20,808 nucleotides of DNA, taken from contig JAAFKJ010000158.1 of NCBI GenBank assembly GCA_021399395.1, forward strand, positions 1-20,808, read 5' to 3'. The notes beneath the pieces were generated by a model, which saw only the letters and a program-made list of their open reading frames with translations, was not told where the DNA came from and did not search any database. The position numbers and the translations under genes were made by a program. Every line of letters begins with the position of its first letter. Position 1 is the stretch's first letter. The DNA comes from Candidatus Heimdallarchaeota archaeon (GTDB taxonomy: Archaea > Asgardarchaeota > Heimdallarchaeia > Heimdallarchaeales > Heimdallarchaeaceae). Below are positions 4,471 to 16,946 of the stretch, in pieces.

Positions 4471-4492
4471 GTTCTTGAAAAATTTTCCACTA

Positions 4493-5536
4493 ATGAAAAC
4501 TTATACAATGGACAAGAAAGTTTTTCCTGAATTCATCAAATTAGTAAAAAGCAAAGGAAAACTTTTTGGTCCAATTAAGCAAAAGAATAAGTATTCTTTT
4601 GAAGAGATCAATGATTCTTCAGACTTAGACTTTGATTATCAAAGGACTATCATTGGTATTAAGAAATTTTTAACACCTCCTAAATACAAAACAATGATAT
4701 TCAACAAAGAAGGTACTGAAGATGTCTTTGATGGTGATGAAACTAATATTGTCATAGGCGTTCATCCTTGTGATATACATTCCGTGAAAATATTAGATAG
4801 ACTTTTCTTGGCAAACATTAAGGACCCATACTATGCTAAAAAAAGAGACAATCTAGTCATCATTGGACACTCATGTCTTCCAGATGACAACTGTCTATGT
4901 CATTCTACTGGAACAGATATGGTTGAAGATGGATTTGATCTCTTTCTTACAGATCTTGGTGACTATTATCTAGTTTGGGTAGGATCAGATAAAGGTCTTA
5001 GTCTTACAATTGCGGCTGATAATTTGCTCTCTGAAGAAACAACAGAGGAGAGCATAAGAGATTATGTAGCATGGCAACAAAAGCGATCCTCGATGTTCAA
5101 AAAAGGAATGCCTTCGTTCAAATATATGGCAGATATAATGAATTTAAATTATGACAGCGATGTTTGGGAGCAATTCGGAGAAAAATGTCTATCTTGCGGT
5201 ACATGTAGTCTAGTTTGTCCCACCTGTAATTGTTTCAATGTAGAAGATATTATTGCAATGAACACAGAAGAAGGATTTAGAGAACGACAACTAGACAGTT
5301 GTACATTACCATACTATTCTGTAGTAGCTGGAGATCACGATTTCCGACCCAATAGAACTGCAAGGTTGAAGCTTTATTATACTCATAAATTGAAGGATTA
5401 CATAGGTAGATGGGGACAACCAGGATGTGTTGGTTGTGGTCGATGTGTTACTTATTGTCCTGTTAATATTAATGTTGTAACAGTTTCTGATGCATTATTT
5501 GGTGAAGTGTGCGAAACTCAAGAGGTGTGTGAATAA
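4493..5536 (+). CDS. hydB: Group 3b [NiFe]-hydrogenase (sulfhydrogenase) beta subunit, Fe-S protein
   Basis: Motifs GVHPCDI, C..DDNCLC, CLSCGTCSLVCPTCNCF and GCVGCGRCVTYCP; first gene of the beta-gamma-delta-alpha order. Start moved to ATG 4493 based on TATA spacing. Confidence 0.93.
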   Translation: MKTYTMDKKVFPEFIKLVKSKGKLFGPIKQKNKYSFEEINDSSDLDFDYQRTIIGIKKFLTPPKYKTMIFNKEGTEDVFDGDETNIVIGVHPCDIHSVKILDRLFLANIKDPYYAKKRDNLVIIGHSCLPDDNCLCHSTGTDMVEDGFDLFLTDLGDYYLVWVGSDKGLSLTIAADNLLSEETTEESIRDYVAWQQKRSSMFKKGMPSFKYMADIMNLNYDSDVWEQFGEKCLSCGTCSLVCPTCNCFNVEDIIAMNTEEGFRERQLDSCTLPYYSVVAGDHDFRPNRTARLKLYYTHKLKDYIGRWGQPGCVGCGRCVTYCPVNINVVTVSDALFGEVCETQEVCE

Positions 5537-6396
5537 TGACAGAAGAAAATAAAATTAGAGAAGATCATTCTTACAGAGATTTCCCAGTTGAGATTATAGG
5601 ATTGAAAGATTTGACAAGCGATACAAGATATTTCAAAGTCAGATGTTTGAATGAAGATATGAAGAATAAATTCAATTACAAACCAGGTCAGTTTGTTATA
5701 TTCTCAATTCCTGGTGTAGGCGAAGCTACATTTTCCATCTCATCACCACCAACCAGAAGAGATTTTGTAGAGTTTGGTATGAGAAAAGTTGGAACGTTTA
5801 CTGAAGCGTTTTTCAAGTTAAAAGAAGGGGATGTCTTCAATATGAGAGGTCCGTACGGAAATGGCTTTGAAATGGAGAGCTTGAAAGGTAGAGATATAAT
5901 AATAGTAGCTGGAGGATTAGGCGCAGTACCTCTAAGATCTGTATTGTTATATGCCGAAGATAGAAGAGAAGAATTCAACCAAGTGTTTTTCTTAAATGGT
6001 GCTAGATCACCTGATGACATGCTATTTAGAGAAGACTTCATGGCAATGGCAGCTAGAGGAATCGTTGATACTCGTTTATCAGTTGATAAGGATCCAACAG
6101 GAGAATGGCCTTATGATGTGGGTTTTGTAACAACTTTGATACCTCAATTAGCAGAGAAGATAAAGGCTGAAAACACTACAGCTTTAATTTGTGGTCCTCC
6201 TGGAATGTATAGATTTGTTATACAAGAATTGCTGAAATTAAATGTTCCAAAAGACCAAATTTTGATGACATTAGAACGAAGAATGAAATGCGGACAAGGA
6301 CACTGTGGGCACTGCGTTGTAGGTGGTAGATATACCTGTCTAGACGGGCCAATTTTTACGTACTATGATGTTCAGCATGAGAAAGAGTTGATATAA
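5536..6396 (+). CDS. hydG: Group 3b hydrogenase gamma subunit (FAD/NAD(P)-binding, [2Fe-2S])
   Basis: Motifs KPGQF, FSISS, RGPYGNGF, AGGLGAVPLRS, ICGPPGM and ERRMKCGQGHCGHC...CLDGP. TAATG overlap with the upstream gene. Confidence 0.94.
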   Translation: MTEENKIREDHSYRDFPVEIIGLKDLTSDTRYFKVRCLNEDMKNKFNYKPGQFVIFSIPGVGEATFSISSPPTRRDFVEFGMRKVGTFTEAFFKLKEGDVFNMRGPYGNGFEMESLKGRDIIIVAGGLGAVPLRSVLLYAEDRREEFNQVFFLNGARSPDDMLFREDFMAMAARGIVDTRLSVDKDPTGEWPYDVGFVTTLIPQLAEKIKAENTTALICGPPGMYRFVIQELLKLNVPKDQILMTLERRMKCGQGHCGHCVVGGRYTCLDGPIFTYYDVQHEKELI

Positions 6397-6397
6397 A

Positions 6398-7192
6398 ATG
6401 TGGAAAAGAGATGAAAAGAAACCTGTAATTGGTATATTTGGATTTTCAGGATGTGCTGGAGATCAACTAGCAATCCTACATATGGAGGAACATACTGTTG
6501 ATTTCTTCACACAAGCTGATATCAAATTCTTCCATATGGCACAATCACATCAAGAAGTTCCTAAAGTAGATGTAGCCTTAGTTGAAGGAAGTATAAACAC
6601 TCAAAGACAATTAAAGGAATTAAAAGAAATTCGCGAAATGGCAGATGTTGTTGTTGCTCTTGGTACATGCGCTTGCTATGGTGGTATTCAATATCTTGGT
6701 GAAGATGAAGAAACCTTCAAAGAAAGAATGAAGTATGTTTATGGTAAGAATGGAGAGGTTCCTGAATTTCTAGATCTTGTTGGACAACCCAAACCAGCTC
6801 AACCTATCAGTGATTTCATTGAAGTTGATATCATGATACCTGGATGTCCTATTTCAGCAGAGAACTTTGTACCTATTTACACAAAATTGATTAGTGGATT
6901 AAAACCTCAAAAATATCCTATGCCAGTTTGTGTAGAGTGTAAATATGAAGGAAATGATTGTTTCTTATTACACGGCAAATTCTGTTTAGGTCCAGTTACT
7001 TCAGCAGGCTGTAACGCTATATGCCCAAGCTTAGATGTTTCGTGTGTTGGCTGTTTTGGTTCGTATGAAGGAGCAAACTTCCCAGCAATGATCGACAAAC
7101 TCAAAGAAATAGGTTTGACTGAAGAAGACGCAATTCGAAAACTGAAAATGTTCGGTGGAAATAGAGTTGAAGAAGCTCTAAAAGGTGATTAA
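6398..7192 (+). CDS. hydD: Group 3b hydrogenase delta (small, Fe-S) subunit
   Basis: Motifs SGCAGDQ, VEGSI, ALGTCACYGG, IPGCP, VCVEC, CLGPVTSAGCNAICP and CVGCFG. Confidence 0.94.
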   Translation: MWKRDEKKPVIGIFGFSGCAGDQLAILHMEEHTVDFFTQADIKFFHMAQSHQEVPKVDVALVEGSINTQRQLKELKEIREMADVVVALGTCACYGGIQYLGEDEETFKERMKYVYGKNGEVPEFLDLVGQPKPAQPISDFIEVDIMIPGCPISAENFVPIYTKLISGLKPQKYPMPVCVECKYEGNDCFLLHGKFCLGPVTSAGCNAICPSLDVSCVGCFGSYEGANFPAMIDKLKEIGLTEEDAIRKLKMFGGNRVEEALKGD

Positions 7193-7193
7193 A

Positions 7194-8480
7194 ATGGTAG
7201 AGAAAACAATAAGTGTTGATGTAATTTCAAGAGTAGAAGGCGATGGAGGAATTCAAGTATATACCAAAGACGGAAAAGTAGAGAAAGTACTAGTAGATAT
7301 CTTTGAAGGACCACGTATGATCGAGGCCCTTGTTAGAGGTAAAACTTACGAAGAAAACCTTTCATTAGTTGCCCGTATTTGTGCTATATGCACCGTTTCT
7401 CATAGATATGTTTCAATCAAAGCAATCGAAAAAGCTCTGAAAGTAGAAGTACCTGATAAGGTCAAATTACTTAGAGAACTAATGCATCTTGCAGAATTCC
7501 TTGAATCACATATTCTACATGTTTACTACTTAGCTCTCCCAGATTTCTTCAAACAACCTTCAGCAATAGCATTATTACCAACACATGGAGAAACAGTTGT
7601 TCAAGCTGTTACTATGAAGAAGTATGGTACAGAATTAATGCAACTTCTAATGGGAAGAAAGATACATGGTGAGAACCCTCAAATCGGTGGGTTTGGTCGT
7701 ATTCCAACAGATGAAGAATTAGATAAATTTCTTGAAAATGTTGATGAGTATAAATCTTGGGTGTCAAGTATTATTGACCTTATGGCTACTTTAGAAATTC
7801 CAGATTATGGTGTAAGAGACACTACATTTATGTGCTGTAATCCACCTGATGGCAAATTCGGTTTTGAAGGAGACACTGTTCTTATTTCAACAGGTGAAGA
7901 ATATCCTGTAGAAGAATATAAAAAATTAACCAACGAAAGGGTTGTTCCTCATAGTTATGCCAAAAGATCAAAGTATCAAGACAAACCATTTTCAGTACAT
8001 GCATTAGCACGATTATCATTGATTGGTGATAGATTAACTGGTGAAGCAAAAGATAAGTATGATAAATATTTCAGTGAATCTTGGAAATCTAACCCTATCT
8101 ACAATAACTTATGTCAAGCAATTGAAGCATTGTGGGCTTTTGAGCAAATCCCAATTTTGATTGAGAAAATAAAAGCTTTACCTGATTCAGAAATAGTCCA
8201 ACCTGAAGTCTTAGATGGAACAGCAACAGCTGCAGTAGAAGCTCCTAGAGGAATTTTATATCATACATATGAAATTAAGGATGGAAAGATTGTCAATGCA
8301 GATATCATAACTCCAACAGCTCAATTTTTGGATGATATCGAGGCTTACATCAAAGTAGCAGCTGATAAGTTGGTTGCAGAAGATCATCCTGATACAGAGC
8401 TTCATTTAGAAATGATAGCTAGAGCATATGATCCTTGTATATCATGCAGTTGTCATATGGTTAAATTGGTGAAACAATAG
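7194..8480 (+). CDS. hydA: Group 3b hydrogenase alpha (large, catalytic NiFe) subunit
   Basis: SRVEG, L1 motif RICAICTVSH, EAPRG, and L2 motif RAYDPCISCSCH followed by a 7-residue cleavable tail. GGTGA at 7184-7188 is read as the RBS for ATG 7194. Confidence 0.96.
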   Translation: MVEKTISVDVISRVEGDGGIQVYTKDGKVEKVLVDIFEGPRMIEALVRGKTYEENLSLVARICAICTVSHRYVSIKAIEKALKVEVPDKVKLLRELMHLAEFLESHILHVYYLALPDFFKQPSAIALLPTHGETVVQAVTMKKYGTELMQLLMGRKIHGENPQIGGFGRIPTDEELDKFLENVDEYKSWVSSIIDLMATLEIPDYGVRDTTFMCCNPPDGKFGFEGDTVLISTGEEYPVEEYKKLTNERVVPHSYAKRSKYQDKPFSVHALARLSLIGDRLTGEAKDKYDKYFSESWKSNPIYNNLCQAIEALWAFEQIPILIEKIKALPDSEIVQPEVLDGTATAAVEAPRGILYHTYEIKDGKIVNADIITPTAQFLDDIEAYIKVAADKLVAEDHPDTELHLEMIARAYDPCISCSCHMVKLVKQ

Positions 8481-8939
8481 TTGTCACCTTCTCTTTCTTT
8501 TTTTAAAAATAGGGATATTAGCCGTATTGCTTTTTTTTGTTTTGGTAATAGAGATAGAACAGATGATTCATTCGGTTTGTTAGTAGCTGATGAATTGGTT
8601 AAAATCTACCCTACTAGTGTTTTTTCTGAAGAAGTAGAAGATATATCTACCTTCCTTATAGATATTGTAGATACGGAAAGATATGATGGAATCGTGATTA
8701 TAGACGCAGTTGATTATGGAGCTCAACCAGGAACACTATTAATAACTTCAGACATATCCTCGTATATCAAATCAATTTCTAGTCATGCCATTCCACTTCA
8801 AGAAATATTCGAATTCGTCAGTTTAAAAAATAAAGATTTTCTCTTAATAGGATCTCAAGCAAAGTCTGTAGAATTTATGAAAACTCCTTCTGAGGAAATA
8901 CTCAAAGCAGTTGATAACGTGCTTGATTTATTGAAATAA
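8481..8939 (+). CDS. Hydrogenase maturation endopeptidase (HycI/HybD family)
   Basis: Motifs FGNRDRTDDSFG, IIDAVD and SSHAIPL. TTG start immediately follows the hydA stop. Confidence 0.88.
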   Translation: MSPSLSFFKNRDISRIAFFCFGNRDRTDDSFGLLVADELVKIYPTSVFSEEVEDISTFLIDIVDTERYDGIVIIDAVDYGAQPGTLLITSDISSYIKSISSHAIPLQEIFEFVSLKNKDFLLIGSQAKSVEFMKTPSEEILKAVDNVLDLLK

Positions 8940-8941
8940 GT

Positions 8942-9685
8942 CTAAATAAATATTAGAGGGAAGTTCAATATATTCGCTTTGTTCAAGCAGTAAAATGTTA
9001 CGAAGAGCGCTATAAAAAGTAGCCATACTAACACTCTGAACAAATCATTTAAAGCAAATCTAACACTCCTATAATGGGTTCGTTTTTGAATTCCAAATCC
9101 TTTGAAATAAAGAGATTGAGCTAGAAACTCAGATCTATAAATTATTGAAGCTATCAATATCGCTAAGACCTTAGGTAACCACCTGAAGAAACCTCCTTTC
9201 ATTTCCCCTCTTAGCCTTAAGGTTGTAAAAGTATCCTCTGCATCTCTGGCTATCCTTGGAATCATAATTAGAGCTAATGAAGGAATTAGTGCTATTTTCG
9301 AATTTATACGCATATTTTCAAAGAATCTTGTTAAATCTGATGGATTTGTTAGAGTAAAGAACAGAGAGAATCCTAGACCACCAATTAGTAGTCGAGAGAG
9401 AACTCTGAAAACCAGTATCCACCCTCCGAATACGTAAGTAATTGCTCCAAGAATAACTATCGCAGGTATTAAGGCATAAAGAATGCTCAAAGCTCCTTTG
9501 ATGTTTTTGAAAAAAATATTCTCAAAGATTACAATAATAACTAGTAACGCTAATACCCAGTTGATATTTACTACCATAAAACCAAACTGAATTAGAATAA
9601 TCAGAATCCCGATTAATGGATGAACATGTAAACTATCAGGTTTGAACATTAGACCTTGGTAAACTCTTCTAAGCATGAAAGACAT
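8942..9685 (-). CDS. ecfT: ECF transporter transmembrane T component
   Basis: HPL motif, hydrophobic helices, TLTNPSDL, IPRI and the coupling motif LRG; abuts the ATPase gene. Confidence 0.88.
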   Translation of the reverse strand: MSFMLRRVYQGLMFKPDSLHVHPLIGILIILIQFGFMVVNINWVLALLVIIVIFENIFFKNIKGALSILYALIPAIVILGAITYVFGGWILVFRVLSRLLIGGLGFSLFFTLTNPSDLTRFFENMRINSKIALIPSLALIMIPRIARDAEDTFTTLRLRGEMKGGFFRWLPKVLAILIASIIYRSEFLAQSLYFKGFGIQKRTHYRSVRFALNDLFRVLVWLLFIALFVTFYCLNKANILNFPLIFI

Positions 9686-11335
9686 TTAGAGTTCCCTCCT
9701 GAGATATTCGTTCAATTCTGATGGAGTTAGGAAGTGAGGTAATTTGTGCTGATATTGTTTTTCTAATGCTTGAATAAAACGTACAGTTTGATTTGGAATA
9801 AGATCTGTCTGATTCTCTAAAGAATAAAGTACTTTTCTGGGAGTATCCTCCATGAAAATATGGTTGTCTCTCAGAACTATCATCCTATCTAGATGTGGGA
9901 ATATTCTTGGATCATTGGATGCAATAATAACCATTTTACCTTCGGTTTTTGCTTTGTTTAGAAGTTTAAGAAGAATGTTTCTTCCATTTTTATCTAAAGC
10001 AATAGTTGGTTCATCTAATAAAATTATATCACTCTCAAATTGGAAAGAATTAACCAAAGCGATTAGCCTTCTTTCTCCTTCACTTAAATGATACAACTTT
10101 TTATCTATCAGATCTGTTAATTGCATCTCTTCGAAGATAGCTTGTGTTCTTTCTGAATCTTTCAATTCTCGTTCAAGATCTTTTCTGGGTGTTGGTCCAA
10201 TAAGAAAAAGTTTAGCGTTCTCAGGAATAAGTATAATACTTTTACTAGCACTCCTTACTGATTTGATTTTTTTATCTAAAATTGAAATTTTTCCTTTATC
10301 AGGTTTTAAAATACCAGAGATGATCTTGAATAATGTTGATTTTCCGCTACCATTTATACCTGTAAGACCAATTATCTGACCTCTTTGAAGAGTTAGAGAA
10401 ATATCCTCCAGAATAAGTGAACTTTTCTTATTATACTTAAAAGAAAGATTTTCACATTTCAGAACATCCTTATCAAATAGTTCTTCTTCTTCAAACAAGG
10501 TCTCAGATTCATTTTTAGAAATAAAGGTGCTCTTCAGCTGTTTAGATTGTATATCTATAGTATCCTCTAAGCTTAGATATGGAACATCATTTGAAGGAAA
10601 TTCTAGTAAACTTATTTCAGGAGGATCAATTTTTTCTAATAAGTGTAAATGCTTCTTAGGATCTCCATCAGCAATGAGTTTTCCCTTATCTAGAATGATT
10701 AGTCTATCTGCTTTTGATAGGATATAATCTAATCTGTGTTCAAATGCAAGAACTATGTGTCCATTTTCAGCAATGGTCTTCAGAAGATTTACCAATTCAA
10801 TTTCTGTTTTAGGATCTATTCTTGCTATAGGTTCATCGAGAATAAGTATTGATGGTGAAGCGGCTAGTGCAGATGCAAGAGACACTTTTTGAAGCTCACC
10901 AGAACTTAATTCAGTAATTAATCGATTTCTGAGATGACCTATGTTCAATTTCTCAAAAGTTTCATCAAGAAGTTTGTTTATCTTGTTTCTCGGTAAAGCA
11001 AGATTTTCAAGACTGAAAACAATTTCCTCTTCAACAAGTAAAGAAGTTGTGAAATCACTTGGATATTGAGGTACATAGCCTAATTGTTCTATCAAATCCT
11101 TTCTTGATAATGCAGATATAGATACATCATTGAAGGTTATAGATCCGCTAATTGTTGCTTTTTCAAATGATGGAATTAATCCGAGAAGTATCTTTGCTAA
11201 AGTACTTTTGCCGCTTCCACTAGGTCCTGCTACAAGTATAAATTCACCAGGCTTGGCTGAGAAACTAATAGAATTTAGTGCGAATCTTTTTGTTTTATGA
11301 TACTTAGCATTAAGATTCTCTACAACTAACATCAT
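9686..11335 (-). CDS. ecfA: ECF transporter ATPase with two fused ABC domains (A-A')
   Basis: Two Walker A motifs (GPSGSGKST, GINGSGKST), two Walker B motifs (ILDEP, LLDEP), and signatures LSSGE and LSEGE. Confidence 0.92.
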   Translation of the reverse strand: MMLVVENLNAKYHKTKRFALNSISFSAKPGEFILVAGPSGSGKSTLAKILLGLIPSFEKATISGSITFNDVSISALSRKDLIEQLGYVPQYPSDFTTSLLVEEEIVFSLENLALPRNKINKLLDETFEKLNIGHLRNRLITELSSGELQKVSLASALAASPSILILDEPIARIDPKTEIELVNLLKTIAENGHIVLAFEHRLDYILSKADRLIILDKGKLIADGDPKKHLHLLEKIDPPEISLLEFPSNDVPYLSLEDTIDIQSKQLKSTFISKNESETLFEEEELFDKDVLKCENLSFKYNKKSSLILEDISLTLQRGQIIGLTGINGSGKSTLFKIISGILKPDKGKISILDKKIKSVRSASKSIILIPENAKLFLIGPTPRKDLERELKDSERTQAIFEEMQLTDLIDKKLYHLSEGERRLIALVNSFQFESDIILLDEPTIALDKNGRNILLKLLNKAKTEGKMVIIASNDPRIFPHLDRMIVLRDNHIFMEDTPRKVLYSLENQTDLIPNQTVRFIQALEKQYQHKLPHFLTPSELNEYLRREL

Positions 11336-11361: not shown

Positions 11362-12192
11362 TTATACTTGATCTGAGACAGTCTCTTCTTCATTTTCTAT
11401 AAGTGCTTCATCGTCATCTTCATCTGAATGAATGATTCCAAGTTGTCTCAAATATGACACTATCGGAATTGCTATCGCTGCACCAAAGAAGACTTGAGCA
11501 ATATTAAATGGTATTTCTATAGCAGCACCACCAGCTCCAACTCCAAGTATGAAAGCTTGGTAAATAAAATAACCAACAACTATAATCATCCCTCCTAGAC
11601 TGCATGATATTGCCATTTCACCCTTCTCTCCCAAGAAGAAGGTTGCAATTATCATCAAAATACATAAAACTAGAGCTATTATCAACAAAACATATCCAGG
11701 AATAGTCAATGAATAAATCTTATCTTCATTTCCATAAAAAGTAGTTTCAACATTGAAAGATTGATTTGTAAAAATAGCTGAAAAAGTTATCATAAATGCA
11801 CTAAGAATACCAACAACGGAAATCTGAATCCACTTTTTAACCCTCTTGATCAAGTAAAACAAGTATCCTACAACAAATCCTTCTACTGCTTTCAAAATGA
11901 ATGTTGCTGGAGCATAAATACCATACCCAAGAGCTAAATCCGCAAGAGCAGCTCCCACTCCACCAGCAATTGATCCAGTTACAGGTCCTCCAATCAAAGC
12001 TGCTAAGTAAATAAAAGCTTCACCAATATTGAAAAAACCAGATGAAGAGGCAATATTCAGATAGAAAATGGATGTAGATAGAAAGACCAATCCTGTGAAA
12101 GTTACGATTAATGCAATGCTTCTAATTGAATTGACTTCTTTAACTAAACGCTCCCTTAAGATAATTTCTTCCTGAATTTCTTCTGTATTCAT
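11362..12192 (-). CDS. ECF transporter S component, resembling the PdxU/HmpT (pyridoxine/HMP) family
   Basis: GFFNIGEAFIYLAALIGGP...AGGVGAALADLALGYGIYAPATFILKAVEG and C-terminal EIPFNIAQ. First gene of an S-A-T cluster. The substrate is inferred. Confidence 0.88.
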   Translation of the reverse strand: MNTEEIQEEIILRERLVKEVNSIRSIALIVTFTGLVFLSTSIFYLNIASSSGFFNIGEAFIYLAALIGGPVTGSIAGGVGAALADLALGYGIYAPATFILKAVEGFVVGYLFYLIKRVKKWIQISVVGILSAFMITFSAIFTNQSFNVETTFYGNEDKIYSLTIPGYVLLIIALVLCILMIIATFFLGEKGEMAISCSLGGMIIVVGYFIYQAFILGVGAGGAAIEIPFNIAQVFFGAAIAIPIVSYLRQLGIIHSDEDDDEALIENEEETVSDQV

Positions 12193-12199
12193 AACTATT

Positions 12200-12213
12200 C
12201 AAGTTATAACTTG
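12200..12213. promoter_or_regulatory. Perfect 14-bp palindrome CAAGTTATAACTTG, candidate operator of the ECF operon
   Basis: Lies between the minus-strand TATA-like element (TTTTATTAA, 12220-12228) and the S-component ATG at 12192. Confidence 0.65.
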
Positions 12214-12340
12214 TATATATTAATAAAACTCTTTTGGTTTGAATATGAAAGGAAGAGAAAAGTTTCTGCAAATTGGGTCTACTTTAGTTTTCTAAAGAAC
12301 AAGTTATTCATAACAACACGCATTCTCTAATTTGAATAAA

Positions 12341-12682
12341 ATGAAAGGTAAAAAGCTTTTATTCGGATTCAGTGTCGTAATGGTATTCATTTTAGCATCA
12401 CAGTTCACCACTGCAACTCAAATTACACTACCTGAGACAACTATAGCTAATGAGACACCTTTGACATGTATAGAACAATTCCAATATCGCGTCTTGAATC
12501 TTACCGCAAATCATGAATGGCTTTTCAACATGTCACGTATTTGTGATGGTGAATGTAATTGTACAAATGAAATTCCCGACGGTGATCAACTACAAATAAG
12601 AGATAGAATTCAAGAACGTCTCCAAGATTGCGAAAATGCATTTATGCAAATGTTGCTCAATTGTTTTAGACACAATGAATAG
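12341..12682 (+). CDS. Small secreted/membrane-anchored Cys-containing hypothetical protein
   Basis: Signal peptide (MKGKK + hydrophobic stretch + ATQ), six Cys including CDGECNC, and QLQIRDRIQERLQD. Has an upstream TATA-like element and a downstream terminator. Confidence 0.75.
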   Translation: MKGKKLLFGFSVVMVFILASQFTTATQITLPETTIANETPLTCIEQFQYRVLNLTANHEWLFNMSRICDGECNCTNEIPDGDQLQIRDRIQERLQDCENAFMQMLLNCFRHNE

Positions 12683-12718: not shown

Positions 12719-14056
12719 TCAAATGAAATCAATCAGATTTCTCATTTTCTCTAGTGTTTCATATCCTTTTGTAGTTAATTCAAATTCTTTTCTTTTAGCA
12801 GTTTTAGATGAAATAATTATTCCACGAGCTTCAAGCTCATTAAGATGTTGATAAATAGACTGGAGGGATTGAACTTTACCTAAAGAAACCCAAATTGAAT
12901 ATCCGTAAACTGCTTTTGCCGCAGCTATAAGATTCAGAATTTCAAATTTTGTAGTTGAGTTTTCCGACAAACCCCAGACTACTTTTTTCTTACCTCTCAT
13001 CTGAGCAGCATAAATATTCAATGCATTGAAACCAGAACCTGATAATATGGCCACTGAACTTGAAGCAGAGATTTTATTTTTATCTAGAAGCTGTTCAGCT
13101 GCTACCAAAACAGAAGCTGATGCAGGTTCGATAAATAGGCCCTCTTTCTTGGCTAATAGCATTGCAGCTGTTATCATCTCATCTGCTTTGATTTCTATTT
13201 CACTACCTTTGGTTTTGTGTAATATTTCCTTAACCTCTTCAAGAAGGAAAGGTTTCTCAATATTCAACGATTCTGCAAGATGAGATACTTTAGATTTCTC
13301 TAATGACACCGCATAAATTTCAGGAATCTTCTCAATCCAGCCTGATTCTTGCGCATCAAGAAATCCTTTGAAGATTGAGAATATTAAAGAACCAGCACCT
13401 CTAGGAACTATTATAGCAGTGATATTTTTAAGTTGAAGCACAAGCTCCAAACTTATAGTTTTCTGTCCTTCGATAGTTAAGATATTAACATCCGGTGTTG
13501 CAAGATAATGGTCACTTTTTGAAGCAAGTTCTTGTGCCTTGAGTTTAGCATCATAATACGTATCACCAATTTCTATTACCTTACTTCCAAAAATCTTCAT
13601 CTGTTCTATCTTAGATAATTCAAGATTCTGTGGAACAACATTGATAGTTTCTAAATTAGCTTTAGCTGAATATGCTGCAAGACTTATACCAAAGGATCCA
13701 GTACTAGCTCCGACTATAGTTTTCTTTTTCTTTTGAATTGCATCTGAGACTACTAGCGAAAGAGCACGATCTCTGAAAGATCCAGTTGGATTTCTAAATT
13801 CTAATTTCAACGAGAGATTGCCGTATTTTGGGATGTTTTCTACCTTAATCACAGGAGTATTTCCTTCGAAAAGAGAAATTGGTTTTGTAAAAGAAGGCAG
13901 AAACTCAGAAAGAGACCACATTGTATCCAAGTTTATTTTACTTGAGTGAGGACCCTGAATTGTAGGTACAAAAACAAGATTGTTACATTTTGAACATCTC
14001 AAAGAAGATTCTTGTTCCTTATGACACTCAGTACAAAGTGGTTGCTGTTTCCACAT
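12719..14056 (-). CDS. Threonine-synthase-like (PLP fold type II) protein with N-terminal Zn ribbon and C-terminal winged HTH; probable pseudoenzyme regulator
   Basis: CTEC...CSKC, SLFEGNTP, LKLEFRNPTGSFRDR (catalytic K replaced by R), EGQKT and EGLFIEPASA. The last ~80 aa are PadR/ArsR-like (FEILNL..YGYSIW..SLQSIYQHLNELEARGII..FELTTKG). Confidence 0.9.
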   Translation of the reverse strand: MWKQQPLCTECHKEQESSLRCSKCNNLVFVPTIQGPHSSKINLDTMWSLSEFLPSFTKPISLFEGNTPVIKVENIPKYGNLSLKLEFRNPTGSFRDRALSLVVSDAIQKKKKTIVGASTGSFGISLAAYSAKANLETINVVPQNLELSKIEQMKIFGSKVIEIGDTYYDAKLKAQELASKSDHYLATPDVNILTIEGQKTISLELVLQLKNITAIIVPRGAGSLIFSIFKGFLDAQESGWIEKIPEIYAVSLEKSKVSHLAESLNIEKPFLLEEVKEILHKTKGSEIEIKADEMITAAMLLAKKEGLFIEPASASVLVAAEQLLDKNKISASSSVAILSGSGFNALNIYAAQMRGKKKVVWGLSENSTTKFEILNLIAAAKAVYGYSIWVSLGKVQSLQSIYQHLNELEARGIIISSKTAKRKEFELTTKGYETLEKMRNLIDFI

Positions 14057-14104: not shown

Positions 14105-14305
14105 TTAATAGTCAGTTAATCCGAGGGGTTCTTCACTTTTATCAACATCTATATGACACTCATAGAGCTCTTCAAAGATTTCCTCAAGCTTAAATGACAT
14201 TGGATCTTCAAAGTCAAGGAAGAAATCCACATCCATATCAGCTAAATGTCTTAACAAAACAATCAACAATTCTTTCTCTTTAGGGGAACTAACAACTATT
14301 TTCAT
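14105..14305 (-). CDS. Small acidic hypothetical protein (66 aa)
   Basis: Fills the intergenic gap. Preceded by AAAGATTTTTGT, a promoter-like element also found at similar spacing upstream of the SDR gene. Confidence 0.65.
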   Translation of the reverse strand: MKIVVSSPKEKELLIVLLRHLADMDVDFFLDFEDPMSFKLEEIFEELYECHIDVDKSEEPLGLTDY

Positions 14306-14413: not shown

Positions 14414-14453
14414 AGCAGTATCCAGAATTATTCAAATTAATACAGTGATAACT

Positions 14454-16151
14454 ATGCCAGAAAAGATTTGGAGTTATTGTGAGGGTATTCCAGATGAAAT
14501 AAAAGTACCCGAAATAAGTGTTGTAGATTTATTTCGACAAACTGCTGATAAATACCCCGAAAGACAACTTACTGAATTCTTAGGAAAATTCAAAACTTAT
14601 CCAGAAATGGATGAAGAAGTAAACAGGTTTGCTAACTCTTTACAAAAATTAGGTGTAAAGAAAGGTGACAGAATAGCTTGTTTGATGCCTAATTGTCCTC
14701 AATATATTGTAGCGTTTTTTGCTACAAATTCATTAGGAGCCATTTTTACTGCAATTAGCTCATTATATACTGAACATGAAATTAGATATCAACTTCAAGA
14801 TAGTGGAGCAAAAGTAATTGTTACACTAGATCTATTCTTAGATAAGATTCGAACAGTAAAAGATGAAACTGATGTTGAACACATAATTGTATCTTCTGTA
14901 GCTGATGAAATTTCATCTGTGAAGGGTTTTCTTTATAAGAACGTAATTGCTAGAAAGAATCCTAAAATAAATAATGAAATAGTTTACAAAGATTTCATCA
15001 AAAAAGGAGAAAATAAAAGAATCTTAACAAAAGTTGATGCTAAAAAAGATATAGCTTTACTACAATATACTGGTGGAACTACCGGCATAATGAAGGGCGC
15101 AATGCTCACTAATTACAACCTTATGGCCCAAGCAACAATTCTACCATATTGGGATATTTGGTTACCTGCTAGACCAGAAGGTCAATACAAGATATCTGGA
15201 TGTTTGCCAATGTCGCATATATTTGGCTTCTCAACTTCTTTTCTATGGACAATTGCTGTAGGAGGATTACTGTATTTGGTACCCGATCCACGAAAACTTG
15301 AAGATGTTATGGCAAGCGTATCAAAGTACGGAATTCATTTCATGTTTGCAGTACCCATTCTTTATCAGAAAATCGCTGAACATCCTAATATAGGAAAATA
15401 CAATATGACTTCACTTTACATGTGTATATCTGGTGGAGAAGCATTACCAAAAACCACTTCAGAAAAATTCGAAGCTGCAAGCGATGCTCTACTTATTGAA
15501 GGTTACGGTTTGTCAGAATCTGCTCCTGTAACACATGTTAATCCGGGTAATAAGGATTTAAGAAAAGTTGGTGCAATTGGTATCCCAATACCTAATACTC
15601 TTGCAATGATTGTTGATCTTGATACTCAAGAAGAACTAACCGAGTATGGTGATATTGGTGAACTCTGGGTTAGAGGACCTAGTGTTATGAAAGGATATTG
15701 GAACAGCAAAGAAGCATCAGATGCAGTTTTAGTAAAAGGTTGGTTAAGAACTGGAGATATAGCTACTAAAGATGATCAAGGCTTCTTTTCTATTGTAGAT
15801 CGAGCTAAAGACATGATTAGTGTCTCAGGTTATAAAGTCTGGCCAAAAGATGTCGAAGAGGTATTATTTGCTCATCCAGATATCAACATGGCTGGAGTAG
15901 TACAGCAAAAGGAAGGAGACAAGGAAAAAGTTAAAGCTTTTCTAGTTGCTGAACCCGGGAGTGAAGAACTATCCCGAGAAGAAATCAAAGCTTACTGTAA
16001 GGACAAATTAGCTCCTTACAAGGTACCAACTATCATTGAATACAAAGATGATCTACCTCGTACTGTTGTTGGGAAAGTTTCTCGCAAAGACCTCAGAGTT
16101 CCAGAAACAGCTGCTCCTGATATGAAAAAAAAAGTAATTGAACAAAAATAG
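14454..16151 (+). CDS. fadD: Long-chain-fatty-acid--CoA ligase (ANL adenylate-forming family)
   Basis: LQYTGGTTGIMKGA, EGYGLSE, GELWVRGPSVMKGYW, WLRTGD, DRAKD and LPRTVVGK. The track's GTG at 14445 more likely belongs to a GTGA RBS for ATG 14454. Confidence 0.93.
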   Translation: MPEKIWSYCEGIPDEIKVPEISVVDLFRQTADKYPERQLTEFLGKFKTYPEMDEEVNRFANSLQKLGVKKGDRIACLMPNCPQYIVAFFATNSLGAIFTAISSLYTEHEIRYQLQDSGAKVIVTLDLFLDKIRTVKDETDVEHIIVSSVADEISSVKGFLYKNVIARKNPKINNEIVYKDFIKKGENKRILTKVDAKKDIALLQYTGGTTGIMKGAMLTNYNLMAQATILPYWDIWLPARPEGQYKISGCLPMSHIFGFSTSFLWTIAVGGLLYLVPDPRKLEDVMASVSKYGIHFMFAVPILYQKIAEHPNIGKYNMTSLYMCISGGEALPKTTSEKFEAASDALLIEGYGLSESAPVTHVNPGNKDLRKVGAIGIPIPNTLAMIVDLDTQEELTEYGDIGELWVRGPSVMKGYWNSKEASDAVLVKGWLRTGDIATKDDQGFFSIVDRAKDMISVSGYKVWPKDVEEVLFAHPDINMAGVVQQKEGDKEKVKAFLVAEPGSEELSREEIKAYCKDKLAPYKVPTIIEYKDDLPRTVVGKVSRKDLRVPETAAPDMKKKVIEQK

Positions 16152-16201: not shown

Positions 16202-16894
16202 CTATTTTAGAAGTTTCTCTATTCTATTTCTATCTGTTTCTTCCAGTTCATCTAGACCTTTAACATTAGCTAAACTCAGTCTTTTCCAGAAAATACATTT
16301 TTCATGATTCCAACGATAGTTCAGATGGTCCTGATAATAATGTGGTTCGCCAATTCTAACAGTATTCTTCTCAATTTTCAGACCACAGCTTTTGCATGTT
16401 GCTCTACTGCTCTTAGCATACTCTGCTTTCCATTTCAGATCGTCATCATCCGAATCGGGTTCAGAGGCCGCTTGTTCTAGTATGGGATTGATAATTTCGA
16501 TTGGATTCGAGCCTCCTAAGAGACTTTTGTCTAATTGTAAGTGAAATGTATCATAATTGGACATTACGAAGCCTAATTTTGCGGGTTTGTCTAGTTGTAA
16601 TTTTTTCTCCACTACGATTTTTGGTGGTAAACTATTTTCTTTCAAGATGTATTCTGCACATGCTTTGGACATGTGTTTACTAATATCTCTCTTATTGAGT
16701 GGTTGATATTTAATTCCTTCAACTATACCATATGATGTCTGTATAATAGTTCGGTCTAGGTCTTCAATATATTCTCGTTCTTTTAAAACAACAAGGGAAC
16801 CATCTGGTATTTCTTCTGTTATTTGATAAATTTTGAAAGTTTCAGGATCGATGAAATGTCCCCACTCCTCATCGGGATCAAGTTGCATTTTCAT
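16202..16894 (-). CDS. Protein with unknown N-terminal domain and C-terminal PARP-type zinc finger
   Basis: WKAEYAKSSRATCKSCGLKIEK..VRIG...WNHEKC...VKGLDELEETDRNRI matches the zf-PARP pattern CX2C-Xn-HX2C. ATG at 16894 is preferred by TATA spacing. Confidence 0.88.
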   Translation of the reverse strand: MKMQLDPDEEWGHFIDPETFKIYQITEEIPDGSLVVLKEREYIEDLDRTIIQTSYGIVEGIKYQPLNKRDISKHMSKACAEYILKENSLPPKIVVEKKLQLDKPAKLGFVMSNYDTFHLQLDKSLLGGSNPIEIINPILEQAASEPDSDDDDLKWKAEYAKSSRATCKSCGLKIEKNTVRIGEPHYYQDHLNYRWNHEKCIFWKRLSLANVKGLDELEETDRNRIEKLLK

Positions 16895-16946
16895 AGTTAT
16901 CAACAGAGACAATATCGTTCTAGTTTTTATATTTTCTTGAAAGAAT

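Follow-up and report, generated by a model that had tools for sequence, protein, structure and literature searches.

Several described regulators combine a ligand-sensing domain with a DNA-binding domain. MocR proteins keep the Schiff-base lysine of the pyridoxal 5'-phosphate (PLP) enzyme fold. RbkR is a riboflavin kinase joined to a helix-turn-helix (HTH), ThiR is a ThiN domain joined to an HTH, and PadR proteins are small (~100-190 residues) and sense their ligands at the dimer interface. In Bacteria, the PdxR regulons comprise pdxST, pdxK, and pdxU, and the MocR family is described as "not present in Archaea" (PMC5320631). The stretch of DNA analysed here, hereafter the window, is the 20,808-nucleotide contig JAAFKJ010000158.1 of Candidatus Heimdallarchaeota archaeon. 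On its minus strand, positions 12719-14056 form an open frame of 445 amino acids whose product joins a threonine synthase (ThrC)-fold domain, devoid of the Schiff-base lysine, to a C-terminal PadR-like winged helix. In all likelihood, this protein is a non-catalytic sensor and DNA-binding regulator. Judged from sequence and gene context, it is probably a repressor sensing PLP or another form of vitamin B6, B6 being the signal, and an archaeal analogue of the bacterial PdxR. It represents a new family, PdxR-like in its presumed working and not a member of PdxR, although regulators of this kind, in which an enzyme-derived sensor and a winged helix serve vitamin genes, are already known. A full-text search, lying outside supplements and subscription journals, found no description of a ThrC-fold/winged-helix family.

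The original prediction had read this protein as a threonine-synthase-like pseudoenzyme fused to a winged helix-turn-helix (wHTH), and the motifs it named, NPTGSFRDR with an AGA codon at 13772-13774, STGS, VPRGAGS, and a CxxC..CxxC ribbon, are all present in the sequence. The fold-type II motif is EFRNPTGSFRDR, in which Arg95 is encoded by AGA at 13774-13772 on the minus strand, while STGS and VPRGAGS occupy residues 118-121 and 217-223, respectively. The ribbon has the form C8xxC11...C21xxC24, with C8, C11, and C24 near-invariant across 69 aligned relatives. Pfam identifies a PALP domain at residues 60-340 (E 2.1e-57) and a PadR domain (PF03551) at residues 373-436 (E 2.5e-05). The latter scores 24.6 bits, just below the 27-bit cut-off, which relatives exceed with 35.6, 43.2, and 47.5 bits. 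Among the NCBIfam models, NF004170 (442 positions) aligns end to end with the window protein at 277.9 bits vs a cut-off of 421, and the thrC model TIGR00260 (125.8 vs 167.1 bits) and NF005035 (153 vs 301 bits) likewise stay under their cut-offs.

Structurally, the full-length AlphaFold2 model reaches a mean predicted local distance difference test (pLDDT) of 89.5, with a floppy linker at residues 355-365. Foldseek matches it to solved threonine synthases (E 1e-23, target template modelling (TM) scores of 0.80-0.82) at ~27% identity, and Arg95 aligns exactly onto the Schiff-base lysine of 2d1f and 6cgq. Compared by sequence with the Protein Data Bank (PDB), the C-terminal domain finds weak matches only (PadR 4esb, E 0.26), and a fold search was used instead: the C-terminal 88 residues, modelled separately (pLDDT 90.7, secondary structure H-H-H-E-E-H), match MepR and PadR-like winged-helix regulators with TM scores of 0.70-0.76. 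An intact ThrC fold followed by a PadR-like wHTH, as had been claimed, is what Pfam and Foldseek return, and the structure prediction proposed as a check comes out on the same side. When two copies were predicted together with PLP, the interaction prediction score from aligned errors (ipSAE) was 0.87 vs 0.00 for the best control, with a partner pLDDT of 85. The runs share at least 54% of their contacts, and the confident contacts all lie within the ThrC domain. Of 30 proteins whose solved structures are pairs, 20 attain this ipSAE mark, and so does 1 of 23 with single-chain structures, counts that are only rough because the dimer prediction used its own alignment and a ligand; furthermore, the score may reflect memory, since ThrC dimers have already been solved. 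The prediction is uninformative on the winged helices and on the ligand.

The loss of the lysine extends across the family. In a word-based search followed by MAFFT alignment, 114 of the 120 homologues listed have an Arg in the lysine column and six a Lys. These homologues come mostly from Heimdall-, Loki-, Thor-, and Odin-type Asgard archaea, those of Thermococcus and Methanomicrobia being more distant. Five of the six Lys-bearing proteins are 391-408 residues long and lack the C-terminal extension, and the sixth (P0112) is a Lys-bearing fusion. A profile built from 69 family members was also searched against 1.84 billion cluster representatives, which yielded a representative set of 151 proteins at 50% identity (the window protein and the 150 matches listed). 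At least 60 residues follow the ThrC domain in 91 of the 151, and two N-terminally truncated members do not cover the lysine site. The original prediction had proposed asking whether lysine loss goes together with the HTH, and it does: 87 of the 89 PadR-type fusions covering the site lack Lys, and all 59 Lys-type ThrC proteins lack the winged helix (57 have no extension and two a LeuA-type one). Among the 58 members without an extension, 57 keep the Lys, and the one with Arg is a 247-residue fragment. The opposite outcome, which the prediction had named as fatal to it, namely HTH-bearing homologues mostly retaining Lys, is not observed (K in 2/89, namely P0128 and P0130). The residues found in the 87 fusions are diverse (R 23, L 20, I 19, V 8, T 5, M 4, F 3, and Y, S, H, A, N once each), and a separate classification of the 89 fusions gave R 23, K 2, and other 64. 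The two proteins with a LeuA-type extension (P0240 and P0248, ~610 residues), which keep the Lys and count among the 91, carry a LeuA allosteric/dimerisation domain (PF08502) behind their ThrC domain; they are a different ThrC fusion, apparently a catalytic one.

The other pocket motifs are conserved in the fusions as strongly as in the Lys-type ThrC proteins of the representative set. They comprise N89-P-T-G-S-F94, D96-R97, S118-x-G120-N, E196-G-x-K199-T200, the glycine loop P218-x-G220-x-G222, E305-G306-x-F308-x-E310, and T339-G-x-G342-L, and are the motifs with which fold-type II enzymes grip PLP at its phosphate, ring, and N1. The Asn-to-Ser change that gives STGS is particular to a Heimdall/Loki subgroup (N 19, S 4 in the Arg clade), and the Arg itself is strictly kept within that clade (23/23 representatives). 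At another position, aligned to a ThrC Arg that we take to hold the substrate phosphate, the fusions have Thr/Ser or a hydrophobic residue. In an unrooted FastTree phylogeny of the ThrC domain, with the lysine column masked, the Lys-type enzymes group together (support 93), and the fusions divide between an Arg-rich group of 33 members and a hydrophobic one, whose 57 members fall on several open branches. In the winged helix, the Gly, Tyr, and His of the motif (A/S)(V/I)YQHL-x-EL-x-x-GLI are invariant among 46 relatives from both clades. The window genome (201 contigs, 82% complete) harbors two further ThrC-like genes with the Lys and the same N-terminal ribbon, one of them above the TIGR00260 cut-off. 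The Arg copy is therefore a spare paralogue, dispensable for threonine synthesis, and the Cys4 ribbon, shared with these Lys-type paralogues, is ancestral.

Downstream of the regulator gene and on the same strand, the window carries in succession the S component, a double ATPase, and the probable T component of an energy-coupling factor (ECF) importer (Table 1); the three constituents thus stand together, the T-component match being weak. Gene neighbourhoods were compared across 81 loci, 80 from species-representative genomes plus the window, with all open reading frames (ORFs) of at least 70 residues clustered. In 59 of the 81, the regulator has an S-component homologue nearby, a lower bound because several contigs are short. 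It lies within 1.5 kb in 45 loci, mostly 40-130 bp downstream on the same strand. These loci belong to Heimdall, Loki/Hod/Hermod, Odin, Bathyarchaeia, and Desulfurococcales archaea, and Arg-type genes in four genomes of a Thermoproteota sample (G145, G225, G209, and G170) also precede an S component. The sole significant PDB match (E <= 0.01) of the window S component is 4hzu_S (E 2.6e-07), presumably HmpT, the crystallised transporter. PdxU and PdxU2/HmpT, which transport B6 vitamers, belong to COG4720/PF07155 (PMC9997740, partial text), and the crystallised HmpT carries pyridoxamine (PMC4860826, partial text). Pfam's own name for PF07155 is 'riboflavin transporter S component'.

The second link to vitamin B6 is with the synthesis genes pdxS-pdxT. 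PdxS (PF01680) was not found in the 82%-complete window genome, and it is absent from all five other carrier genomes, including the complete-chromosome loci of Promethearchaeum syntrophicum and Heimdallarchaeum endolithica. Two samples were surveyed more widely, one of 121 Asgard genomes (completeness at least 80%) and one of 151 Thermoproteota genomes. Among the Asgard genomes, 22 have PdxS, 68 a full-length family member, and nine both. In three of these nine the regulator adjoins pdxS-pdxT. In G092, of the window's genus, the Arg-type regulator is followed by same-strand pdxS-pdxT where the window has the ECF operon, the locus being otherwise syntenic with the window (divergent acyl-CoA synthetase, small upstream ORF). 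In G012, the regulator, with Leu at the lysine site, precedes pdxS and pdxT on one strand, and in G025 a regulator with Ile is divergent from them. In the Thermoproteota sample, ~45 genomes have a full-length match, 67 have PdxS over the cut-off, and eight both; in four of the eight, a Leu-type regulator (PTGSYLDR) is divergent from pdxS-pdxT across a gap of 9-61 bp. The neighbours of the archaeal family, pdxST or a PdxU-family ECF importer, are therefore the same two gene sets as in PdxR regulons. Overall, the regulator occurs in 9 of 22 PdxS-positive vs 59 of 99 PdxS-negative Asgard genomes, and in 8 of 67 vs 37 of 84 Thermoproteota genomes. This trend fits a B6 role but was left unused as a test, given the relatedness and incompleteness of the genomes and the 31 weaker matches that each search left unlisted.

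A candidate operator has been located between the regulator and the S component (Table 1). In the window's genus, it reads CAAGTT-N2-AACTTG; relatives of the Heimdall group carry CAAGTTGTAACTTG at the matching place, in the Bathyarchaeia, palindromes resembling TAGTATAGTTATAACTATACTA separate the regulator gene from that of the S component, and the Desulfurococcales version is TAAAGTT-N2-AACTTTA. A stretch of the type AAAA(G)GTT(T)TATA, similar to that of the window, precedes the palindrome in relatives. Within -100..+30 of the start, the core AGTT-N2-AACT is found at 39 of 59 S-component genes vs 4 of 698 other ORFs of the same loci, and at 1 of 88 regulator-family ORFs, with 69 occurrences overall in 890 kb. 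Several of the 20 S-component starts without the core show one-mismatch versions. Furthermore, the pdxS promoter of G092 contains two near-copies, CAAGATTTAACTTG and CAAGTTTCGACTTG, between a TATA-like element and the ATG. The window genome contains two exact occurrences of the 14-mer pattern, and 12200-12213 is the only intergenic site; the other was dismissed, as it sits in a coding region. One-mismatch sites for CAAGTTNNAACTTG numbered 13 per strand in the window genome vs 18 for the reversed control, and were not used, there being no enrichment. From its place next to the TATA element and over the expected start site, we infer that the palindrome occupies the position of an archaeal repressor site.

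These observations suggest how the system may work. The regulator would have been built from a duplicated archaeal threonine synthase. Its ThrC domain should be incapable of PLP catalysis because the Schiff-base lysine is lost, and it most likely binds a B6 vitamer, PLP or pyridoxamine 5'-phosphate (PMP), reversibly, because the rest of the PLP pocket is kept. Dimerisation via the ThrC domain would set the two PadR-like winged helices on the palindrome CAAGTTATAACTTG at 12200-12213, which lies directly against the TATA-like element of the ECF operon and should overlap its transcription start. When B6 is abundant, the dimer with its ligand would silence the genes of the ECF importer (S component, ATPase, and T component). 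The window organism seems unable to make PLP; in relatives that make it, family members beside pdxS-pdxT would control synthesis instead. The ligand, the binding to DNA, and the direction of regulation (repression by the ligand) are those suggested by comparative genomics. More broadly, the balance tips slightly towards a large, pan-archaeal family of so-called threonine synthases (Asgard archaea, Bathyarchaeia, Desulfurococcales, Thermococcales, and others) acting as the master regulator of vitamin B6 homeostasis, which would read free PLP non-covalently and, acting on a conserved palindromic operator, switch either pdxST or an ECF importer of B6.

Several points weigh against a B6-sensing repressor. 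As to the protein, P0128, P0130, and P0112 keep the Schiff-base Lys despite their PadR-like winged helix; they may be revertants or MocR-like covalent PLP sensors. Two of the three nest inside the Arg clade in the quick tree, which is FastTree only and rootless and does not settle the number of lysine losses. As to the importer, no S component was seen in 22 of the 81 loci, the 80 compared loci over-represent the Arg clade because they were picked by a peptide pattern containing FRD, and the Thermococcus and Methanomicrobia loci show housekeeping neighbours only, some Heimdall loci being likewise uninformative. The match to 4hzu_S is weak (33.7 bits over ~77 residues). PF07155 is itself broad, and extending the annotation of B6 transporters to relatives is difficult (PMC9997740, partial text). 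As to pdxS-pdxT, the four Thermoproteota loci are close kin, and the regulator does not adjoin pdxS in 6 of 9 Asgard and 4 of 8 Thermoproteota genomes, short contigs blurring one case. In three Thermoproteota genomes, a Lys-type ThrC gene is divergent from, or lies a few kb from, an Arg-type regulator (Table 1), which could be a trace of the founding duplication or reflect co-regulation with threonine synthesis. As to the operator, the Heimdall-group loci show no palindrome ahead of the regulator gene itself, and autoregulation is therefore unsupported. In addition, the hydrophobic clade has CCTATATATAGG in the gaps beside pdxS; this differs from the operator of the Arg clade and may be an operator or merely a symmetric TATA box. 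At up to two mismatches CCTATATATAGG has no match in the window, and it was rejected as an operator there.

The alternative that survives best, although unlikely, is that the regulator responds to a metabolite related to amino acids (O-phosphohomoserine, threonine, phosphoserine, or a PLP-amino acid adduct) and that the ECF importer carries a cargo other than B6. Phosphohomoserine and amino acids had stood beside B6 among the ligands first proposed, and they are the less likely candidates now. Such a ligand would suit a sensor domain descended from threonine synthase, as it would the Lys-type ThrC genes near the regulator in three Thermoproteota genomes; PF07155, by its Pfam name, leaves room for a different cargo, and the replaced ThrC Arg, presumably a substrate-phosphate ligand, indicates that the substrate site has been remodelled. 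The same replacement also speaks for B6, given that the PLP-phosphate loop and ring-contact motifs are kept and the substrate-phosphate site is not. Moreover, pdxS-pdxT adjacency recurs in seven genomes from two phyla and two clades, and an operator-like palindrome is common to ECF and pdxS promoters within one genus, both of which speak against amino-acid sensing.

Far less probable is a protein that is still an enzyme, working without an internal aldimine or without PLP, its winged helix serving only dimerisation, partner binding, or autoregulation. Strong conservation of the active-site scaffold minus the Lys, strict retention of Arg in one clade (23/23), and the existence of bifunctional archaeal enzyme/regulators such as RbkR (PMC5397151, partial text) would be in keeping with activity. 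Nevertheless, no common catalytic role fits the unrelated residues at the lysine site (R, L, I, V, T, M, F, Y, S, H, A, and N), the palindromes conserved in neighbouring promoters point to a protein that binds DNA, and Lys-type ThrC paralogues are present in the same genome. Still less credit is given to a PLP carrier or buffer that is not switched by its ligand and is tethered by its winged helix to DNA or to another protein. Its conserved pocket without a covalent link would permit reversible PLP storage, and the means by which cells limit their free PLP are described as an open question (PMC9997740, partial text), but a sequence-specific palindrome at the target promoters and a gene order like that of known vitamin regulators speak against mere storage. 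Finally, a sequencing error or strain-specific mutation of an ordinary threonine synthase, which a single-base change (AAA/AAG to AGA/AGG) could produce, is rejected as next to impossible, since Arg is found in 114 of the 120 homologues listed, down to ~30% identity and across Asgard archaea, Bathyarchaeia, Desulfurococcales, Thermococcus, and Methanomicrobia, and 87 of 89 fusions lack the Lys.

With a B6-responsive repressor as the preferred reading, the annotation of the family deserves attention. The original prediction had suspected that homologues are named threonine synthase, and the source names are indeed 'threonine synthase' or 'pyridoxal-phosphate dependent enzyme'. NF004170 (PRK05638, 'threonine synthase') includes the winged helix. 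Its best match in the 151 Thermoproteota genomes, in G170, scores 700 bits, reads PTGSFRDR, and is followed by ECF S and ATPase genes. The model exceeds its cut-off in five genomes, where all five top matches are full length, and those of G170 and G005 (locus L054) show the Arg or FRD pattern. NF004170 thus seems to model the Lys-less fused family, and its name looks wrong for that family because the best match has Arg and ECF neighbours. Since the family is so named and matches an equivalog model, metabolic reconstructions of Asgard and other uncultured archaea may count one threonine synthase too many and overlook a probable auxotrophy for B6, PdxS being present in 22 of the 121 Asgard genomes sampled. 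B6 sensing and regulation in archaea have so far been undescribed, a gap that the family would fill, and B6 transporters have been called a knowledge gap (PMC9997740, partial text). If the proposal is true, the archaeal B6 transporter is identified too, the AIR-synthase-like gene of Bathyarchaeia operons is flagged as a candidate for the missing salvage kinase (see below), and the family offers a clear example from nature of how a PLP enzyme can become a cofactor sensor once its Schiff-base lysine is lost. The protein, its candidate operator, and its presumed target set are directly testable.

The 5-aminoimidazole ribonucleotide (AIR)-synthase-like protein (PF00586/PF02769) is encoded near the regulator in 17 loci, mostly of Bathyarchaeia, where it mostly follows the S component. 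These loci include L021, L022, L025, L027, L036, L037, L041 (8087-9109, plus strand), L044, L048, L051, L052, L061, and L063. Its nearest models are HypE, ThiL, and SelD, all below their cut-offs. Its fold, which phosphorylates at the expense of ATP, and its place in a putative B6 uptake operon make it a candidate salvage kinase; no match to Phos_pyr_kin (PdxK) was found in the window genome.

Other genes surround the regulator in the window. The small ORF directly upstream of it has 50-59% identical counterparts (tblastn) at the same position in seven Heimdall-group loci (L012-L016, L018, and L092), and may share a transcript with the regulator. In the gap that separates the regulator from the S component, positions 12332-12682 on the plus strand could encode 116 residues, rich in Cys and hydrophobic at the N-terminus; none of the other loci yielded a relative, and this ORF, which may therefore not be a gene, was left out of the system. 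An acyl-CoA synthetase (AMP-binding; 14445-16151, plus strand) is divergent from the regulator, and the pairing recurs in seven clustered Heimdall-group loci (the window, L012-L016, and L018) and in L092. The ECF operon is bordered by a [NiFe]-hydrogenase cluster (4475-8939, plus strand) encoding an Fe-S protein, a FAD/NAD-binding subunit, a small subunit-like Oxidored_q6 protein, the large subunit, and the HycI maturation protease; a similar hydrogenase and HycI pair lies beside the regulator in L018. At 16202-16912 on the minus strand, a 236-residue protein ends in a PARP-type zinc finger (PF00645, E 5.5e-15). This finger is best known from eukaryotic PARP and DNA ligase III, and its presence in an Asgard-type genome is notable.

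Table 1. Positions of the regulator, its presumed target, and related features (window positions unless a locus is named)
Feature	Position	Strand	Basis or remark
Gene of the ThrC-fold/winged-helix protein, candidate B6-responsive regulator	12719..14056 (including stop)	-	ORF, Pfam PALP and PadR, NF004170
N-terminal Cys4 zinc-ribbon-like motif (C8, C11, C21, C24)	13985..14035	-	Sequence, relatives
Fold-type II PLP-enzyme (threonine synthase) domain, residues 60-340, presumed sensor	13037..13879	-	PALP, Foldseek, motifs
AGA codon, Arg95 at the Schiff-base Lys position	13772..13774	-	Sequence, homologue alignment
C-terminal PadR-like winged helix-turn-helix, residues 365-445	12722..12964	-	Pfam, model, Foldseek
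Candidate operator, perfect 14-bp palindrome CAAGTTATAACTTG	12200..12213	.	8 nt upstream of the S-component ATG
A+T-rich stretch AAAAGAGTTTTATTAATATATA, B recognition element (BRE)/TATA-like	12214..12235	-	Directly upstream of the palindrome; putative promoter role
ECF transporter S component (PF07155, PdxU/HmpT family), presumed target	11362..12192	-	Pfam E 9.5e-20
Fused double ECF ATPase (EcfA-A')	9686..11335	-	Two ABC_tran; TIGR04520/TIGR04521 at 278 and 260 bits, under cut-offs
Probable ECF T component	8942..9685	-	Weak CbiQ match (E 0.0022, below cut-off); operon-end position supports
Conserved 66-residue ORF	14105..14305	-	Directly upstream of the regulator gene; no Pfam match
Arg-type protein, best NF004170 match of the 151 Thermoproteota genomes	L102:5618-6925	-	700 bits; ECF genes follow
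Lys-type ThrC near regulator	L099:4543-5802	-	
Lys-type ThrC near regulator	L100:6516-7751	+	
Lys-type ThrC near regulator	L101:3782-5059	-	

Compared with known systems, the window protein shares with threonine synthase its fold and the N-terminal Cys4 ribbon of archaeal ThrC, and differs from it by lacking the Schiff-base Lys, by staying under the curated cut-offs, and by its extra winged helix. With PadR regulators (B. cereus BC4206/BCE3449 and LmrR), it has in common the winged helix and the type of recognition-helix motif, Y-x-x-L-x-x-L-E-x-x-G-L-I. In contrast to them, its wHTH is appended to a 360-residue enzyme-like sensor, through which the dimer is predicted to form. Like RbkR, it unites an enzyme-derived ligand domain with a DNA-binding domain that would control vitamin genes (PMC5397151, partial text), and like ThiR it would be an archaeal regulator of vitamin synthesis and transport genes (PMC10746257, partial text). 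The vitamin, the sensor fold, and the HTH class, however, are others, and the sensor derives here from an enzyme using the cofactor, whereas those of RbkR and ThiR come from the vitamin's own pathway. With PdxR/MocR, the protein would share the design of a one-component regulator in which a PLP-enzyme fold serves as sensor, and the use of palindromic or repeated operators, the one in the window being a sequence-based candidate; the pdxST and PdxU genes of their regulons correspond to the neighbours found here (PMC5320631, partial text). In contrast, its sensor is of fold type II (ThrC) and theirs of the aminotransferase-like fold type I; its wHTH is C-terminal and PadR-like, theirs N-terminal and of GntR type, no GntR match being listed here; and the Schiff-base Lys is lost in this family, which is archaeal. 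The comparison with MocR/PdxR drawn in the original prediction holds as an analogy, and is sharpened by the pdxST or PdxU-family ECF genes that lie next to the regulator.

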